Below are positions 775 to 14,831 of a DNA stretch of 64,000 bases, one piece after another. Source of the DNA: Escherichia virus TH38; the sequence record MT446410.1. One strand, 5' to 3'. The translations under genes and the position numbers were made by a program. A model generated the notes under the pieces. That model saw only the letters and a program-made list of their open reading frames with translations. It had not been told where the DNA came from and did not search any database. Positions within the stretch are counted from its first letter, which is position 1; every line of letters starts with the position of its first letter.

Positions 775-1330
775 TAAAAACGAAAAAACCACCCTGGCAG
801 GTGGTTTTTCGAAGGTTAGTTAATCCTGGCAGATTCTCTAACCGTGGTAACAGTCTTGTGCGAGACATGTCACCAAATACTGTCCTTTCAGTGTAGCCTC
901 AGTTAGGCCGCCACTTCAAGAACTCTCGTTACATCTCTCGCACATCCTGCTTACCAGTGGCCGTTGCCAGTGGCGTTAAGTCGTGTCTTACCGGGTTGGA
1001 CTCAAGACGATAGTTACCGGATAAGGCGCAGCGGTCGGGCTGAACGGGGGGTTCGTGCACACAGCCCAGCTTGGAGCGAACGACCTACACCGAACCGAGA
1101 TACCAACAGCGTGAGCTATGAGAAAGCGCCACGCTTCCCGAAGGGAGAAAGGCGGACAGGTATCCGGTAAGCGGCAGGGTCGGAACAGGAGAGCGCACGA
1201 GGGAGCTTCCAGGGGGAAACGCCTGGTATCTTTATAGTCCTGTCGGGTTTCGCCACCTCTGACTTGAGCGTCGATTTTTGTGATGCTCGTCAGGGGGGCG
1301 GAGCCTATGGAAAAACGCCTCCCGCGCGCC
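775..1330 (+). ncRNA. RNA II pre-primer of ColE1-type origin; RNA-DNA switch expected near 1320-1330
   Basis: Long near-identical stretch to the pMB1/ColE1 ori (e.g. ccagtggcg...taagtcgtgtcttaccgggttggactcaagacgatagttaccggataaggcgcagcggtcgggctgaacggggggttcgtgcacacagcccagcttggagcgaacgacctacaccgaac). Confidence 0.8.
779..886 (-). ncRNA. RNA I antisense copy-number control RNA (approximate ends)
   Basis: Antisense to the RNA II 5' end; hairpin aaaaaaccaccctggcaggtggttttt corresponds to the RNA I terminator; loop sequences differ from pMB1. Confidence 0.6.
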
Positions 1331-1547
1331 CTTCTTCTGGGTCTTTGTCTTTTGCTCACATGTTCTTTCCGGTTTTATCCCCCGATTCTGTGGATAACCG
1401 TATTACCGCCTTTGAGTGAGCTGACACCGCTCGCCGCAGTCGAACGACCGAGCGTAGCGAGTCAGTGAGCGAGGAAGCGGAAGAGCGCCTTATGTGACAT
1501 TTTCTCCTTACGCTCCTCTATGCCGTTCTGCATCCTGTCCGGATGCG

Positions 1548-1742
1548 TTATATCCCGGTAAGATTTTCCGCTTCAAAGCGTGTCTGTATGCTGTTCTGGA
1601 GTTCTTCTGCGAGTTCGTGCAGTTTCTCACACATGGCGGCCTGTTCGTCGGCATTGAGTGCGTCCAGTTTTTCGAGCAGCGTCAGGCTCTGACTTTTTAT
1701 GAATCCCGCCATGTTGAGTACGGCTTGCTGCTGCTTATTCAT
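1548..1742 (-). CDS. rop: Rop/Rom RNA I-RNA II modulator protein
   Basis: 64 aa, MNKQQQAVLNMAGFIKSQSLTLLEKLDALNADEQ... closely matches ColE1 Rop; convergent with RNA II as in pBR322. Confidence 0.9.
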   Translation of the reverse strand: MNKQQQAVLNMAGFIKSQSLTLLEKLDALNADEQAAMCEKLHELAEELQNSIQTRFEAENLTGI

Positions 1743-2001
1743 CTTTTCGTTTTCTCCGTTCTGTCTGTCATCTGCGTTGTGTGATTATATCGCGTACCAC
1801 TTTTCGACTGTTTTGCTGCCGCTATTCTGCCGCTTGGCTTTTTGACGGGCATTTCTGTCAGACAACACTGTCACTGCCAAAAAACTGCCGTGCCTTTGTC
1901 GGTAATTCGAGCTTGCTGACAGGACAGGATGTGCAATTGTTATACCGCGCATACATGCACGCTATTACAATTGCCCTGGTCAGGGCTTTGCCCCGACACC
2001 C

Positions 2002-8657: not shown

Positions 8658-9035
8658 CTATGGATTTACACATTGACCGTTACCGGATTCAATTTCATTC
8701 ATGGACTCATCAAAGAGCGTTAACGATGAGCGCATCAAGTGATCAATCATGACTTGTTTACCGGTTGTTTCATTTACCAGTTGAACAGTTTTATCATATG
8801 ATTGCACATGATCGAAATCATTTACATGCAAAATAATAACTTTAGGTGACTTTTTACCGGTTTCATAGTTTTCTACAAGATAAGTACATTGCAAGCCGTC
8901 AACCGTAGCAGGGGAGAATGTTGCAGCCTTAACGCTACCCATAGCCGATAGGAGCACACCCAGCAGGAGAACGACAAGGAAGAAGCCCACGAATACTTTT
9001 ACTACAAATTTGATAATACCCATGATAATAATCAC
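8658..9035 (-). CDS. Hypothetical membrane-anchored early protein
   Basis: ORF with an N-terminal hydrophobic segment. Confidence 0.45.
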   Translation of the reverse strand: MIIIMGIIKFVVKVFVGFFLVVLLLGVLLSAMGSVKAATFSPATVDGLQCTYLVENYETGKKSPKVIILHVNDFDHVQSYDKTVQLVNETTGKQVMIDHLMRSSLTLFDESMNEIESGNGQCVNP

Positions 9036-9127: not shown

Positions 9128-9382
9128 CTAGTTGCTATCCTCGCCAAAAAATGCTACGCTAACCTGTTCCACTTCTTCCAGCGACAGAAGAATCCCGCGT
9201 TGGGCTAAATACTTCCCAATAGTGAGATAATCCTGTACTAAATAGACCGCAGGAAAGCTAATAGTTTTTATTTCACCCTTAGTTAGAAAGGACAAATAAG
9301 TGTAGTCGATTGACTCATCAAAGGAGAGCGTAACGCCACCGTAATTGTGCGTGTCAATCAGTGCGATTGTTTCATTACCCAT
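9128..9382 (-). CDS. Hypothetical protein (start adjusted to internal ATG coupled to the upstream stop)
   Basis: GGAGGTGG RBS and ATG overlapping the stop of the 9375-9638 ORF. Confidence 0.4.
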   Translation of the reverse strand: MGNETIALIDTHNYGGVTLSFDESIDYTYLSFLTKGEIKTISFPAVYLVQDYLTIGKYLAQRGILLSLEEVEQVSVAFFGEDSN

Positions 9383-9638
9383 TAGTGCCACCTCCAACAA
9401 GGCCATGATTGAGCAGGTTAGCCAGTGACAAGCCACCGTCAAAATATATAGAACGAAAATCATCACGGTTAATTTCAACGCCGATAGCAGATAGCCAATT
9501 TTTAGCCTGTTTAAAATCCATAACGCAGAAAGTAACAACAGGCAACGTTAACTGACCATGACGCAGATTAAACGTGATAGCGGTATCGCCAACAAAAACA
9601 GAATAGCCATTAGATAATCTAACTTCTTTGATAGCCAT
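9375..9638 (-). CDS. Hypothetical protein (87 aa)
   Basis: ORF. Confidence 0.4.
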   Translation of the reverse strand: MAIKEVRLSNGYSVFVGDTAITFNLRHGQLTLPVVTFCVMDFKQAKNWLSAIGVEINRDDFRSIYFDGGLSLANLLNHGLVGGGTNG

Positions 9639-9663: not shown

Positions 9664-10536
9664 TTACTTACTAGCCTTAATACAGTTGGCTAAATTAACG
9701 TGAACGGTATAAACAGCGTTATCAGCGTTATTGTAAACAGTTGTAGCAATCATCGACTCATTGATCGGGCCATAGCTCACTAGGTTGGTTACAGCTTTAA
9801 CGTCTTCGTAACGTTGTACAGTGCCAAATGTCACCATATCCGCATCGTTATCAGTACGCTTGAGAACTAGATCACTGTTAGGCTGATTATCTAACGTTTT
9901 AGATTGAAAGAGAACGCCATCATTTGTTACGTTGCTAAATTTCATCTTTAGCACGATATTATTGCTGTCACTATCCGCACCGTTGCAAATCATCCAACCC
10001 TTATTGATGGAACTAGAGAAGACACTAGCCGCATCAGTTGCAGGAGCAGGACTAGCGATAGCCTTATCAGAAAGAGATGTGACCAGTGCACTAACACCGA
10101 TAGCTGCAACCAGTGCATAACTTGCCAGATTAACAGACTTCATAATCTTACTTGCAACAGTAGGCTTGATTGGCTGTTTCTTGTTTTTCTTGTTCCATGC
10201 TTCAACCATGACAGACAAGCGGGATAATTCAGCTTTCACATCACGGCATGACTCAGGCCAATCTTTCTGATTCCAGCTATCCAAATTCGCTTGAATGTAA
10301 CAATTGATAGCGTCCTGCATATCGGTAAAACCGTTCTCTTTGAACGTGCTTTCATCTTCACACTGTAAAGCGTTCGCAGTAGAATTAATGATCAAGCAAG
10401 CCAGCATTACAGAGTTTTTGAATCCTTTACGTGCGCTTTCGTTTTCCATCCACGCATCAGGACTACCAACAGTTAAGCCTAAAGAGGAAAGACTTTCGTT
10501 TGCTTTGTTCAAGTGGTTAATTGCTACTTTAGACAT
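9664..10536 (-). CDS. Hypothetical early protein (290 aa) with a central hydrophobic segment
   Basis: ORF with AAGGAA RBS; first gene leftward of the divergent region. Confidence 0.5.
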   Translation of the reverse strand: MSKVAINHLNKANESLSSLGLTVGSPDAWMENESARKGFKNSVMLACLIINSTANALQCEDESTFKENGFTDMQDAINCYIQANLDSWNQKDWPESCRDVKAELSRLSVMVEAWNKKNKKQPIKPTVASKIMKSVNLASYALVAAIGVSALVTSLSDKAIASPAPATDAASVFSSSINKGWMICNGADSDSNNIVLKMKFSNVTNDGVLFQSKTLDNQPNSDLVLKRTDNDADMVTFGTVQRYEDVKAVTNLVSYGPINESMIATTVYNNADNAVYTVHVNLANCIKASK

Positions 10537-10580
10537 TTGATATTCCTTATGGTTGATGAAAACTACAAATTACAATCGCA

Positions 10581-10608
10581 ACTATATAATAAAGGAAAAA
10601 CCTGTCAA
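10581..10608 (-). promoter_or_regulatory. Sigma70-like promoter (TTGACA-16 bp-TATAGT), leftward
   Basis: Minus strand ttgacaggtttttcctttattatatagt about 40 bp upstream of the 10536 start. Confidence 0.5.
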
Positions 10609-10719
10609 CCATTTATTTTCTAACTTTCTTATAACTCACTGAAAACTAAAGGAATTTAATTTACTAAACTTTCCATACTCAGAGAATCAGCTTACTAGCT
10701 ATTGTTACTTTATAACACT

Positions 10720-11190
10720 AATCCTACGGGTGTTACGCTGGTGCTACGGGTAGCAGACCAACAGACCAGGGCAAACGGGGAACACACAACCGCAGAACAG
10801 ACCACGGGGAAACATAGCAAGATAGTGCGGTAATAATATACCACTTAAATAATTGTATAACTCAAACATCAAAGACGTTCGCTACGCTCACAAAGGCACG
10901 CTGAAAAAGAAAAGAATAAAAGAAACACAATCATCCACTTAATTAATACATATATCATTATTGCACTCATAATCATTACTATTGAAACTATTATCAACGT
11001 AACTATGGGGGAATGGGGTAGTAACTAGGGGTATTATTAGACCTGTTATTATCACGCCTTAACAGACCGTTATCAGAGTATAGCCTTTCTCTCACTCTCT
11101 AAAGGGGAACTAAATAAACGGGTAGCTAATGTATTGGGTAGTATACACGGGGAAATAATTACGGGGAGTAGGCACGGGGAAAAGTGGAAC
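10720..11190. repeat. Iteron-like short direct repeats (ACGGGGAA about 7 copies; CAGACCA 3 copies) in the divergent intergenic region
   Basis: Seen directly, e.g. aaacggggaacac, ccacggggaaacat, acacggggaaataattacggggagtaggcacggggaaaag. Confidence 0.5.
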
Positions 11191-11589
11191 GTTGAAAAGG
11201 AAGGTAAAGGCATTGCCAATAACCCTTTTTTAAATGAGGACTCCCCCCTTTTAGGAAACGCGCGGGAAGCGGCTAGCCCCATTCGGTCAAATTGAAATTT
11301 TAAACTGTTATATATAAGGTTGAAAGAGAACTTATGTGGAAAATTAAGTTAATCATTAAGCAATTTAAATGTGATCATGAGTACTATCGGATTCGTAAAG
11401 CTTACGGGGATGAAAGAGTTCACACCCTTTATAAGTCCACTTGGAGATGTAGTAAGTGTGGTAAGCTTAAACACAGCACATGGATGGATAGGTCTTAATG
11501 GAATGGATATTCTGGTTAGTAATAGTCTTCTGTTTATTCATCTGCTTCTCTATAGCAAGATGTATCAAGTATGATTAAGGAACATTAGT

Positions 11590-11725
11590 GACTGACTAAG
11601 CCTTAACATGACATGGCCTTTATGTGAGGGTGCCTTAACATGAAGTCCCCTTTACATCAGCGTACACGGGTTGCTAGTATGAGGATGCCTTTACGGGTTG
11701 GATATGACTAGCCCTTTATACTTTT
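11590..11725. repeat. Array of about 6 GCCTT(T/A)A-type repeats just upstream of the first rightward gene
   Basis: gccttaacatga occurs twice, plus gcctttatgtga, cccctttacatc, gcctttacgggt, gccctttatac. Confidence 0.45.
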
Positions 11726-11743
11726 ATTCAGAGGAGAAGAATT

Positions 11744-11998
11744 ATGAATTTAGTATTAGACTTTTTATCAGAGATGGTGCCTCGGTTCAGAACGGAGACA
11801 TACGCTTTCGTAATCAACAGTGACTCTGAAGATGGGATGGAAGCTACGTGCTTAGGTCGACTTGTTGACTTAGATGATGATGACGATTTCGATATTACAA
11901 TTGACGTGAGTAGCTTAGGTTGGCTCTTCTTCAGAGCATTCCGCACTTACAAAGTAGAAACATACAAAGATTATAGCAAGGGAGATACAAATGAATAA
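11744..11998 (+). CDS. Hypothetical acidic protein (84 aa)
   Basis: ORF with RBS. Confidence 0.45.
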   Translation: MNLVLDFLSEMVPRFRTETYAFVINSDSEDGMEATCLGRLVDLDDDDDFDITIDVSSLGWLFFRAFRTYKVETYKDYSKGDTNE

Positions 11999-12679: not shown

Positions 12680-13153
12680 ATGTTTGGAGAAAACGGAGAA
12701 CTCACGCCTGCACAGGTAGCTGAGATTACAGGAAGATTACCCGGAGTAACGGAAGAACTTGAAGGACGTGGTATGAACCCAAGCAATGGGAAGTTTCAAA
12801 AGGGAAATAAATTCGGACGACCCAGAGGTAGTAGAGGTAAACTGACACAATTAATGTTGGACCGTGTTGCTGCAAGTCATTTGTCTCCTGATGAAGTGTT
12901 AATTCAAATTTACGAAGATCCTAATATTCCACCTGATCTTAGATTCAAGGCTGCATCAAAAGTTGCAGATCTGGTATATCCTAAGGCGGCCTCTGTTGAA
13001 GTTAAGATTGAGGAAGAGAATGTAATCAACGAAGAATCATTGAATGCACAAATCAAGGACTTCTTGACTGGAGCACTTGGTATCGACGTTATGCCTCCAG
13101 AAGAAGACAACTCTGAAGAAAATGAAACGAACAGTCAAGATGAGCAGGTTTAA
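12680..13153 (+). CDS. Putative terminase small subunit (by position; N-terminal HTH-like, acidic C-terminus)
   Basis: Immediately upstream of the large terminase; GAAGGAG RBS. Confidence 0.4.
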   Translation: MFGENGELTPAQVAEITGRLPGVTEELEGRGMNPSNGKFQKGNKFGRPRGSRGKLTQLMLDRVAASHLSPDEVLIQIYEDPNIPPDLRFKAASKVADLVYPKAASVEVKIEEENVINEESLNAQIKDFLTGALGIDVMPPEEDNSEENETNSQDEQV

Positions 13154-13289: not shown

Positions 13290-14831
13290 ATGTCATTAGA
13301 TAAACAAATTTATGAAGCTCTAACTGGTAACAACCTTAGTGTAGAGGAAAAGAAAGCACTATTGAATATGTTGAAAGAGCGTGACCAATGGAGGAAGTAT
13401 AATAGGATTTTGTCTTTCAAGGCGTATGACTTCCAAAAGAAATTTTATGCAGCAGGATTGAAGCATCGCTTTAGATTCTTGTGTGCAGCGAACCGTGTTG
13501 GTAAATCTTATAGTGAGGCATACGAGTTTGCTTGTCATGTCACAGGTCGCTACCCAACTTGGTGGACAGGATATAAATTTAAAAGACCTATCTTAGCATG
13601 GGCAGTTGGTATTACAGGGGATTCCACAAGGAAAGTATTGCAAAAGGAATTGTTTGGTACACCTATCGGAAAGGATACAAATTTATTGGGGACAGGTGTC
13701 ATTCCTCGTGATGCTATCGTCATTGACACGATAGAACGAGATGGTAACAAACTTCAAATCGTACAAATCAAACATCAAAACGAAAGAGGAGAGTTTGACG
13801 GTTTAAGTACATTAGAATTCCGTTCAACCCAACAGGGTGAACACACATTGATGGGTGCAACAGTTGACTACATTTGGTTAGACGAAGAAGATCCATACGA
13901 GTCTATGGCTATATTCGCACAGTGCGTCACACGTACACTCACAACTAAAGGTCTAGTTACAATTACAGCTACACCAGAGAACGGTTTAACTGAACTGGTA
14001 GATAAATTTATGAAAGGTGAAGGGGATGAGAACACAGGTTCTCTATATTTCCAGAATGCTTCTTGGTGGGATGCTCATGCAGACCTAGGTGGACATATCA
14101 CTGACCAAGATATAAAAGATATGACTGAAGGTATTCCAGCGTGGCAGTTAGAGATGCGTTCGAAAGGTATGCCATTGTTAGGAAGTGGTTTGATTTATGA
14201 TGTATCGGATGACACAATTAAATGTGAACCATTCGAAATTCCTGATACGTGGAAACGTGTCTGTGCAATTGATATTGGTATTGATCACCCAACTGCTGCT
14301 GTTTGGACAGCTTACGACGCAAACACGGATACTATCTATGTTTACGACTCATATAAAGAAGGTGGCTTTACTCCAGTGTATCATGCCCCAGCTATTAATG
14401 GTCGTGGTCAGTGGATTCCTGTCATCCTACCGCACGATGCGGACAATATTGAGAAAGGTAGTGGCTCATCTGTTGCTCAATTCTATAAGAATGCAGGAGT
14501 TAACGTGCAGAGTGAGACCTTCTACAACAAAATTGGAATGGATGGTAAAAAGAACTTCTTTGTAGAACCGGGAATCACAGATATCCGAGAAAGAATGATG
14601 AGTGGACGCTTTAAAATCTTTAACACAGCCGCTAACGCTAAGCTATTCGAAGAGAAAGCTAGATATCACCGTAAGGTTGGTAAGATTATTAAAGAACATG
14701 ATGACTTAATGGATGCAATGCGCTATTCAGCGTGCTCTGTTACACATCGTGGTCGCTCTAAACATGACGTTAGCTACGGAAGTGCTTCTCTGTATGAGGC
14801 AAACGTAAGCAGATGGAATCAGAGTTACTAA
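13290..14831 (+). CDS. Terminase large subunit
   Basis: 513 aa; Walker A-like AANRVGKS, Walker B-like DYIWLDEED, C-terminal nuclease-like region. Confidence 0.75.
   Translation: MSLDKQIYEALTGNNLSVEEKKALLNMLKERDQWRKYNRILSFKAYDFQKKFYAAGLKHRFRFLCAANRVGKSYSEAYEFACHVTGRYPTWWTGYKFKRPILAWAVGITGDSTRKVLQKELFGTPIGKDTNLLGTGVIPRDAIVIDTIERDGNKLQIVQIKHQNERGEFDGLSTLEFRSTQQGEHTLMGATVDYIWLDEEDPYESMAIFAQCVTRTLTTKGLVTITATPENGLTELVDKFMKGEGDENTGSLYFQNASWWDAHADLGGHITDQDIKDMTEGIPAWQLEMRSKGMPLLGSGLIYDVSDDTIKCEPFEIPDTWKRVCAIDIGIDHPTAAVWTAYDANTDTIYVYDSYKEGGFTPVYHAPAINGRGQWIPVILPHDADNIEKGSGSSVAQFYKNAGVNVQSETFYNKIGMDGKKNFFVEPGITDIRERMMSGRFKIFNTAANAKLFEEKARYHRKVGKIIKEHDDLMDAMRYSACSVTHRGRSKHDVSYGSASLYEANVSRWNQSY

Follow-up and report, generated by a model that had tools for sequence, protein, structure and literature searches.

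The window analysed here is the whole 64-kb stretch (64,000 nucleotides) of Escherichia virus TH38, record MT446410.1, and the subject of this report is the direct terminal repeat (DTR) and the arrays of short motifs found in the 1.2-kb interval close to its position 11,000. The interval lies, as an initial annotation made from the sequence alone had described it, between a leftward block whose first gene spans 9664-10536 and a series of rightward genes, but it is not wholly non-coding, as a gene of 54 residues that the annotation missed and an open reading frame (ORF) of 26 residues are both located within it. From left to right the locus comprises a leftward promoter, a cluster of heptamers interleaved with CAGACC, an A+T-rich segment with conserved blocks, the DTR with a second heptamer cluster inside it, a predicted rightward promoter, the two small coding sequences and an array of 15-mers, beyond which lie a candidate small terminase gene and the gene for the large terminase (Table 1).

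Table 1. Features of the junction region and the nearby terminase genes, in window coordinates.
Feature	Position	Strand	Remarks
Leftward sigma-70-type early promoter	10581..10608	-	TTGACA, 16-nt spacer, TATAGT; consensus scan 11/12
Right-end flank array	10726..10812	+	AYGGG heptamers at 10726, 10746, 10775, 10804, interleaved with CAGACC (as CAGACCA) at 10754, 10762, 10798
ACGCTGAAAAAGAAA block	10898..10912		11 columns identical in 21/21 genomes; related blocks in P59 and 7-11
ATACATATATCATTATTGCACTCATAA block, 27 bp	10946..10972		Well conserved, inside A+T-rich segment
AACTATGGGG, then G-tract motifs ATGGGGG, ATGGGGT, TAGGGGT	11001..11031	+	Conserved; 50-80 bp left of DTR
Direct terminal repeat, 193 bp	11082..11274	+	Homology to phiEco32 and SU10 DTRs, flanks continuous
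In-DTR heptamer array	11118..11180	+	A-Y-GGG-K-A at 11118, 11147, 11161, 11174; plus TTGGGTA at 11134
AATGAGGACTCCCCCCTTTT block	11233..11252		Near-invariant in 21/21; DTR positions 152-171, near right boundary
Predicted rightward early promoter	11286..11320	+	GGTCAAAT...TTTTAAAC...TATATATAA, upstream of gene 1
Small early gene (gene 1), 54 residues	11334..11498	+	SU10 gp001/phiEco32 gp1 homologue; phrog_7696, E 1e-16
Hydrophobic ORF, 26 residues (MEWIFWLVIVFCLFICFSIARCIKYD)	11498..11578	+	Cassette without counterpart in SU10 and phiEco32
Left-end flank array	11600..11718	+	Six SCCTTWA (11600, 11616, 11632, 11648, 11687, 11712); five full 15-mers (11608, 11624, 11640, 11679, 11704)
Candidate small terminase subunit	12680..13153	+	Weak family-profile matches to PDB small terminases
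Large terminase subunit	13290..14831	+	Pfam Terminase_6N, Terminase_6C; 99.8% identity to annotated Kuravirus TerL

Similarity to sequenced phages places the window in Kuravirus, among the phiEco32-like genomes. The region is matched by 95 phage records, the best of which is TH06 at 96% identity; all but three of them carry Escherichia or Shigella phage names, and every record looked at individually was phiEco32-like (Gordonclarkvirinae; Kuravirus and allies). The phiEco32 and SU10 records contain a 193-bp sequence in identical copies at both ends, and these DTRs align over their full length with window positions 11082-11274 at 92.3% and 93.3% identity, respectively, as does a segment that the YF01 record labels 'direct terminal repeat'. 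In all, 92 phage records match the DTR, many of them starting at exactly base 11082. The final 1200 bp of phiEco32 correspond to 10075-11274 and its initial 417 bp to 11082-11498; the left flank of the DTR matches the right ends of phiEco32 and SU10 and the right flank matches their left ends, which is the arrangement of a concatemer junction. Because these repeats and their flanks align as one continuous junction, the window is best described as a circularly permuted assembly in which the DTR has been collapsed to a single copy.

On this homology it is near certain that the virion genome ends at 11082 and 11274, and the proposal of genome ends in the initial annotation is borne out. The predicted left end begins with AGCCTTTC and the right end closes with GCGGCT. 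With the cut written as a slash, the boundaries in the window read CT/AGCC on the right and AT/AGCC on the left, the left boundary being CT/AGCC in most relatives, and ..CT/AGCC or ..CT/AGGC at both ends is common to phiEco32, SU10, NC-B and 4E8. Repeat lengths are 193 bp in phiEco32 and SU10, 206 bp in 4E8 and 250 bp in NC-B, the differences being internal insertions. Ends have been mapped by restriction mapping and primer walking in phiEco32, from full-length nanopore reads in YF01 and with PhageTerm in Paul, and repeats of 192-193 bp, with a highly conserved region at approximately positions 130-170, have been recognised in 30 phages (PMC9965538). The ends of this genus are already published, and the placement given here is correct without being new. 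The DTRs of phiEco32, SU10, YF01 and Paul have the same length of 193 bp, the same boundaries and the same flanking genes, at 92-96% identity (90.8% for YF01), and the repeat itself shows no substantive difference from the copy in the window.

Strand-biased motif arrays

The motifs were compared across homologous junctions from 20 relatives aligned with the window, giving 21 genomes; 16 of the relatives were represented by internal loci and four were rebuilt from the ends of their records (phiEco32, SU10, NC-B with its 250-bp repeat and 4E8 with its 206-bp repeat). Local expectations were computed against the rest of the window. The P values for motif enrichment are post hoc, and the independent evidence for the motifs is comparative, namely their conservation, with spacers that vary, in the 20 related genomes. 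Since Tandem Repeats Finder reported nothing in the region, the arrays are not tandem repeats but interspersed short motifs whose spacers vary. The three clusters of the initial annotation, built on ACGGGGA, CAGACCA and a GCCTTWA-type motif, are present and far above chance; it overlooked both the composite of CAGACC with ACGGGG and the bipartite nature of the third motif.

ACGGGGA occurs eight times in the window against 2.97 expected; six of these copies, all on the + strand, fall within 10775-11410, including one at 11404 inside the small gene. Exact ACGGGGAA is found in four copies (10775, 10804, 11147 and 11174). The broader pattern A[CT]GGG[GT]A, or A-Y-GGG-K-A, has seven copies in 10700-11200 where 0.11 would be expected per strand (Poisson 4e-11), and zero copies on the - strand of the same interval. 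Heptamers on the opposite strand are likewise almost absent across the 21 genomes, and an A precedes the Y-GGG motif (position -1) in 189 of 201 units, though this position was outside the search pattern. In the cluster to the left of the DTR, where three CAGACCA copies fall inside 50 bp, the composite unit is AGACC(A)ACGGGGAA, and in relatives CAGACC is often fused as AGACC(A)ACGGGG; the copies are located 277-355 bp left of the DTR in the window and 276-453 bp in the 20 relatives, in every case on the + strand. Within the DTR the heptamers stand at +37, +66, +80 and +93 from its start (TTGGGTA at +53), and 17 of the 21 genomes keep these four offsets to within 1-2 bp, while one divergent clade has ATGGGTAG at +37, +66, +94 and +109. 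Between the two clusters, AACTATGGGG itself (11001-11010) is well conserved across the 21-genome alignment. Folding of the DTR as single-stranded DNA gave no sign of unusual structure (z = +1.19), and a GGGGAGT/ACTCCCC pairing in the fold was rejected as not conserved in divergent clades.

The array to the right of the DTR, between gene 1 and the gene at 11744-11998, is built differently. SCCTTWA is present there in six copies, all on the + strand, against 0.026 expected, and the initial four units are spaced exactly 16 bp apart. A GCCTTWA array of five to nine copies, on the + strand only and most often spaced 14 or 16 bp apart, is found in each of the 20 genomes with sequence covering the site. 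Among 118 aligned units, T occupies position -7 in 112 and G position -6 in 114, and the upstream half-site RTGR (-8 to -5) is 95-97% conserved, though units were selected without using it; the four intervening positions vary freely. The unit is a bipartite 15-mer, RTGR-N4-SCCTTWA, because a second, upstream half-site is conserved while the N4 between the two varies. With both strands of the whole window searched, the full 15-mer has five matches, all on the + strand within 11608-11718. The centres of the half-sites are approximately 10 bp apart, so both would be presented on one face of the helix, as a DNA-binding protein would need.

Other readings of the 15-mer array were rejected. A structured non-coding RNA is not indicated, as a search of Rfam at E up to 1 found no match for the region and the 11600-11718 array folds no more stably than shuffled sequence (z = -0.44). 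A coding repeat was rejected because the 14- and 16-bp periods shift the reading frame and because the array follows a stop codon and comes before the next ribosome-binding site.

Several small insertions are associated with this array. A perfect 15-bp hairpin, GTCATC-WWW-GATGAC, which is absent from the window, occurs at differing array positions in five relatives (L023 1657-1671, L026 1659-1673, L030 1772-1786, L033 1873-1887 and L035 1925-1939) and could represent a small element that is mobile or arose by recombination. A small acidic ORF is found between later array units in phiEco32, TH06, ShigP1 and Bas89, and the 26-residue ORF of the window, which sits right after gene 1 beside the initial array unit, is also found in ev_rybdy8 (L025, approximately 1750-1830). 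The array looks like a hot spot for the swapping of tiny gene cassettes.

Terminases and comparison with other phages

The large terminase has relatives at 59-62% identity in Salmonella phage 7-11 and Proteus phage P59 (Grimontviridae) and is approximately 39% identical to those of PaP3/LUZ24-like phages; the closest groups are 7-11, PaP3 and P22, and T7-like phages were not among the large-terminase matches listed. For the product of 12680-13153, a profile of 39 homologues compared with the PDB returned small terminases as its two best matches, 7joq (E 0.0025) and 6w7t, which is PaP3 TerS (E 0.041), both alignments covering the oligomerisation core only. The AlphaFold monomer is of mediocre confidence (pLDDT 69) and Foldseek gave no significant match. 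YF01 gp3 has been assigned as a small terminase by profile comparison (PMC9965538), and the product encoded in the window is a likely, if not a firm, small terminase; it would also be the most plausible binder of the arrays. The small terminase of PaP3 forms a nonamer, carries nine helix-turn-helix motifs and shows sequence-specific DNA binding in vitro (PMC7672466).

In both 7-11 and P59 a stretch of 1.7 kb without annotated genes is located upstream of the small-terminase homologue. The stretch in 7-11 contains ATGA-N3-SCCATCWA four times at a spacing of 27 bp, on the + strand only, and SCCATCWA was found nowhere else in the 8 kb fetched from this phage. In P59 the stretch has four similar units and 12 + strand copies of ACTATG approximately 15 bp apart. 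These ACTATG copies (L045 3428-3868) have none on the other strand, form two clusters around a CCCCCTTTT block, and have a core that resembles the TACT/RTGMC nick-site consensus of LUZ24/tf-like phages, whose terminase is related. Nick sites of that type were considered for the window in view of the related terminase and of the P59 copies, and were rejected as neither enriched nor strand-specific: TACT/RTGMC with up to one mismatch has 36 matches in the window on both strands against 45.7 expected, none of them in the region.

Between Kuravirus clades, which keep SCCTTWA unchanged, the candidate small terminase shows 90-100% identity; in 7-11 and P59, whose second half-site is altered, identity is 50%. 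Such a pattern of co-variation is compatible with this protein reading the 15-mer.

The junction of T7, rebuilt from NC_001604 with its 160-bp repeat, has the same layout as this one. C[CA]TAAAG occurs three times within the T7 repeat, 12 times from +175 to +355 (the usual interval being 13 bp) and three times at up to 150 bp on the other flank, with strand counts of 19 on + and 0 on - and promoters close by. These short-repeat arrays were reportedly named SRL and SRR by Dunn and Studier in 1983. As in the window, a 7-bp motif is repeated on a single strand inside the repeat and on both flanks at a spacing of approximately 13-16 bp, and a short DTR (160 bp, against 193 bp here) is flanked by early promoters. 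The motifs themselves, CCTAAAG in T7 and AYGGGKA and RTGR-N4-SCCTTWA here, are unrelated in sequence; T7 has one motif family, whereas the window has two, one per side, with a bipartite 15-mer on the right flank. The terminase of the window is closer to the PaP3/LUZ24 and P22 types, and transcription strategy is also unrelated, Kuravirus (Gordonclarkvirinae) relying on a phage sigma factor together with host RNA polymerase (PMC12276001). Neither common descent nor a shared motif sequence with the T7 arrays was found. The T7 comparison made in the initial annotation is apt as an analogy, given one-strand heptamer arrays in and around the repeat, but wrong as a classification, and the likeness holds at the level of architecture and not of kinship.

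Repeated binding elements for small terminases are known at other packaging sites, among them the R elements of lambda cosB and the pac boxes of SPP1. Recognition elements of this kind are also outlined in the introduction of PMC7672466. The window is similar in having several short candidate elements near its predicted cleavage sites together with a nearby candidate small-terminase gene related to that of PaP3, and it differs in element number and spacing and in having exact direct terminal repeats in place of cohesive ends or headful cuts. A literature search for a description of such arrays, or for the T7 names SRL and SRR, gave nothing usable. Four papers describe the repeat and its conserved core, and the heptamer and 15-mer arrays are absent from all of them (PMC9965538, PMC4281155, PMC8399022, PMC7881722); an earlier account in the first phiEco32 publications, Savalia 2008 and Pavlova 2012, is possible. 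The arrays appear to be undescribed so far.

Promoters, conserved blocks and small genes

Two outward-facing early promoters flank the junction and leave approximately 680 bp (10609-11290) outside both early units. The leftward promoter (10608-10581) drives the early block that begins with gene 9664-10536; its sequence is the same as that of the SU10 early promoter 'upstream of CDS125', the last gene of SU10, and it is conserved in relatives that retain gene 9664-10536. The rightward GGTCAAAT...TTTTAAAC...TATATATAA block is conserved across the genomes compared, with TATATATAA invariant in 21, and corresponds to a potential sigma-70 promoter in SU10 Table S2 and to a promoter annotated there in the 4E8 record. 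It is called only predicted because the consensus promoter scan did not score 11286-11320.

An untranscribed A+T-rich segment to the left of the DTR, with a GC content of 0.25 at 10900-10999, contains both the ACGCTGAAAAAGAAA and the ATACATATATCATTATTGCACTCATAA block. The block near the right boundary of the DTR (11233-11252) reads AATGAGGACTCCCCC(C)TTTT and corresponds to the conserved region at approximately positions 130-170 described previously (PMC9965538); its CCCCCTTTT core is also found in P59 and 7-11, and a block of the form ACxCTGAAA(A)AGAAAAG is likewise shared with these two phages. The 54-residue product of gene 1 has a C-x-H...C-x2-C pattern. No tRNA was found in the region.

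Matches to known signals were sought as well. The sequence TAATGTAT at 11127-11134, facing rightward inside the DTR, is an exact core of the middle/late promoters of the phage sigma factor (gp36); it is shared by Bas91, ev_rybdy8 and XT18, is replaced by TAATGAAT in phiEco32 and SU10, and was rejected as a late promoter for want of conservation. In EP335, Bas89, 4E8, MLP3, Bas88, 101114BS3 and NC-B, TATAATGT(A) occurs at aligned positions of approximately 10800-10816, facing the DTR some 300 bp away, and agrees with AATGTA, the core of gp36 promoters. In these divergent relatives late transcripts may run across the junction, reminiscent of T7, which has its promoter phiOR upstream of the junction. 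A Chi-like GCTGGTGC at 10737-10744, near the right end, agrees in 7 of 8 bases, is present in the window and TH06 only, and was dismissed as probably due to chance. The one candidate DnaA box, TCATCCACT at 10931-10939 (7/9), is not conserved in divergent clades and was also rejected.

Farther from the junction, window positions 1001-2000 have a GC content of 0.54 against approximately 0.42 elsewhere in the window and may be acquired DNA. Two - strand genes bear database names without Pfam support, 'terminase' for the 125-residue product of 8658-9035 (phrog_13168) and 'polymerase' for the 87-residue product of 9375-9638 (phrog_14176); these look like propagated labels and not real assignments.

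Possible packaging role and alternatives

The most likely explanation, to which a probability of approximately 0.55 is assigned as a whole, is that the region is the terminal region of a Kuravirus, here as a concatemer junction, equipped with one-strand arrays that are recognised by the terminase. Replication would yield head-to-tail concatemers with one repeat copy per junction, as in T7; the terminase, with the candidate small subunit and the large subunit of Table 1, would recognise the junction and nick at both boundaries, and a second copy of the repeat would be made by strand-displacement synthesis in the course of packaging, following the T7 model. The one-strand arrays would serve as sites recognised by protein, marking the junction and setting its polarity, A-Y-GGG-K-A heptamers acting within the DTR's left half and along its left flank and RTGR-N4-SCCTTWA on the right flank. 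Local enrichment, full strand bias in the window, fixed offsets within the DTR and conserved motif columns amid varying spacers would all be expected of such elements, and the terminase recognition suggested in the initial annotation is a reasonable inference. Taken by itself, a role of the arrays in packaging has roughly even odds.

Several observations weigh against this explanation. Since the array on the right flank belongs to the rightward early unit of transcription, an action at the mRNA level is possible. The small-terminase assignment depends on the weak profile matches given above, with no significant fold match. The heptamer differs between clades (ACGGGGA in one, ATGGGTAG in another) while the candidate small terminase is 90-92% identical, and for this reason the reading of heptamers by that protein fits poorly. 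The analogy with T7, finally, would transfer architecture and not mechanism, because to our knowledge the function of the SRL and SRR arrays was never established.

Binding sites for a regulator, which the initial annotation also raised, are possible, and it is in this form, as operator-like sites serving the two divergent early promoters, or else as a protein-bound element of the intercistronic mRNA in the case of the right-flank array, that control of transcription can be envisaged. Each heptamer cluster is located 110-200 bp upstream of one outward promoter, the 15-mers separate gene 1 from its downstream neighbour inside the early unit, and a one-strand orientation is equally expected of an RNA element. 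Such a role is nevertheless unlikely: operators do not usually show periods of 14 and 16 bp or motifs distant from the promoter hexamers, no stable RNA structure is formed, the related array of 7-11 is not intercistronic and occupies the unannotated stretch directly upstream of the small-terminase homologue, and early shut-off in phiEco32 is brought about by gp79 binding to RNA polymerase, not to DNA (PMC12276001). A replication origin, with A-Y-GGG-K-A and CAGACC as iterons and the A+T-rich segment at approximately 10850-11000 as unwinding element, had likewise been put forward in the initial annotation, where the repeats were called iteron-like; specific support for it was not found, and it is rather improbable. 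Clustered direct repeats do adjoin an A+T-rich segment with highly conserved blocks, as at iteron origins, though a segment of GC 0.25 is also ordinary for intergenic DNA that bears promoters, and the cumulative GC skew has its minimum at approximately 11 kb. This minimum coincides with the switch in transcription direction and needs no origin, since the change in gene direction alone explains it. The cores are 7 bp long at irregular spacings of 13-29 bp, in contrast to iterons of 17-22 bp (approximately 20 bp), no initiator-like match was obtained among the eight neighbouring gene products tested, and the sole DnaA-box-like sequence is the unconserved one noted above. Half of the repeats, moreover, are at fixed offsets inside the DTR and are therefore tied to the ends.

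The right-flank repeats might also be without a function of their own, as scars of recombination, or substrates for it, along the edges of small gene cassettes. Differences and indels between genomes fall at unit borders, unit number ranges from 5 to 9, the hairpin takes differing positions in five relatives, and the 26-residue ORF (window and ev_rybdy8) and the acidic ORF (phiEco32, TH06, ShigP1 and Bas89) come and go; yet neutral remnants would not hold their half-sites at 95-100% around a drifting 4 bp, nor would they survive in a second virus family as a related 15-mer, and unequal crossing-over between functional repeats accounts for the indels equally well, which makes this alternative quite improbable. 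The injection-stop region of T5 has been proposed as a signal for stepwise genome delivery. By that precedent the arrays, all within approximately 650 bp of one end or the other, might be carried on the first-entering DNA as stop or hand-over signals, and early promoters and tiny early genes are indeed present at both ends. For Kuravirus genomes neither an entering end nor stepwise entry is established, however, and none of the sequence features tested speaks specifically for a role in entry, which is very improbable.

A broader form of the packaging explanation, in which both arrays constitute a polarity-defining terminase recognition system of short-terminal-repeat phages, is more doubtful and is offered tentatively. 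Two families of elongated-head podophages would have kept its design and, in part, its sequence (ATGA...SCC-T-WA); in the ring-shaped small terminase, one DNA-binding domain after another would contact the 15-mers, and a second factor would read the heptamers within the repeat. If true, a class of phages whose packaging signals have been mapped only in T7 and T3 would thereby gain a defined one. Kuraviruses are frequently recovered as E. coli phages for therapeutic use, and the start points of their deposited genomes are often arbitrary; the ends at 11082 and 11274 allow this genome to be oriented correctly. Genome cloning and rebooting, as well as packaging-competent vectors, need the full signal, beyond the repeat alone, and the conserved arrays are concrete, mutable candidates for the marking of the concatemer junction.

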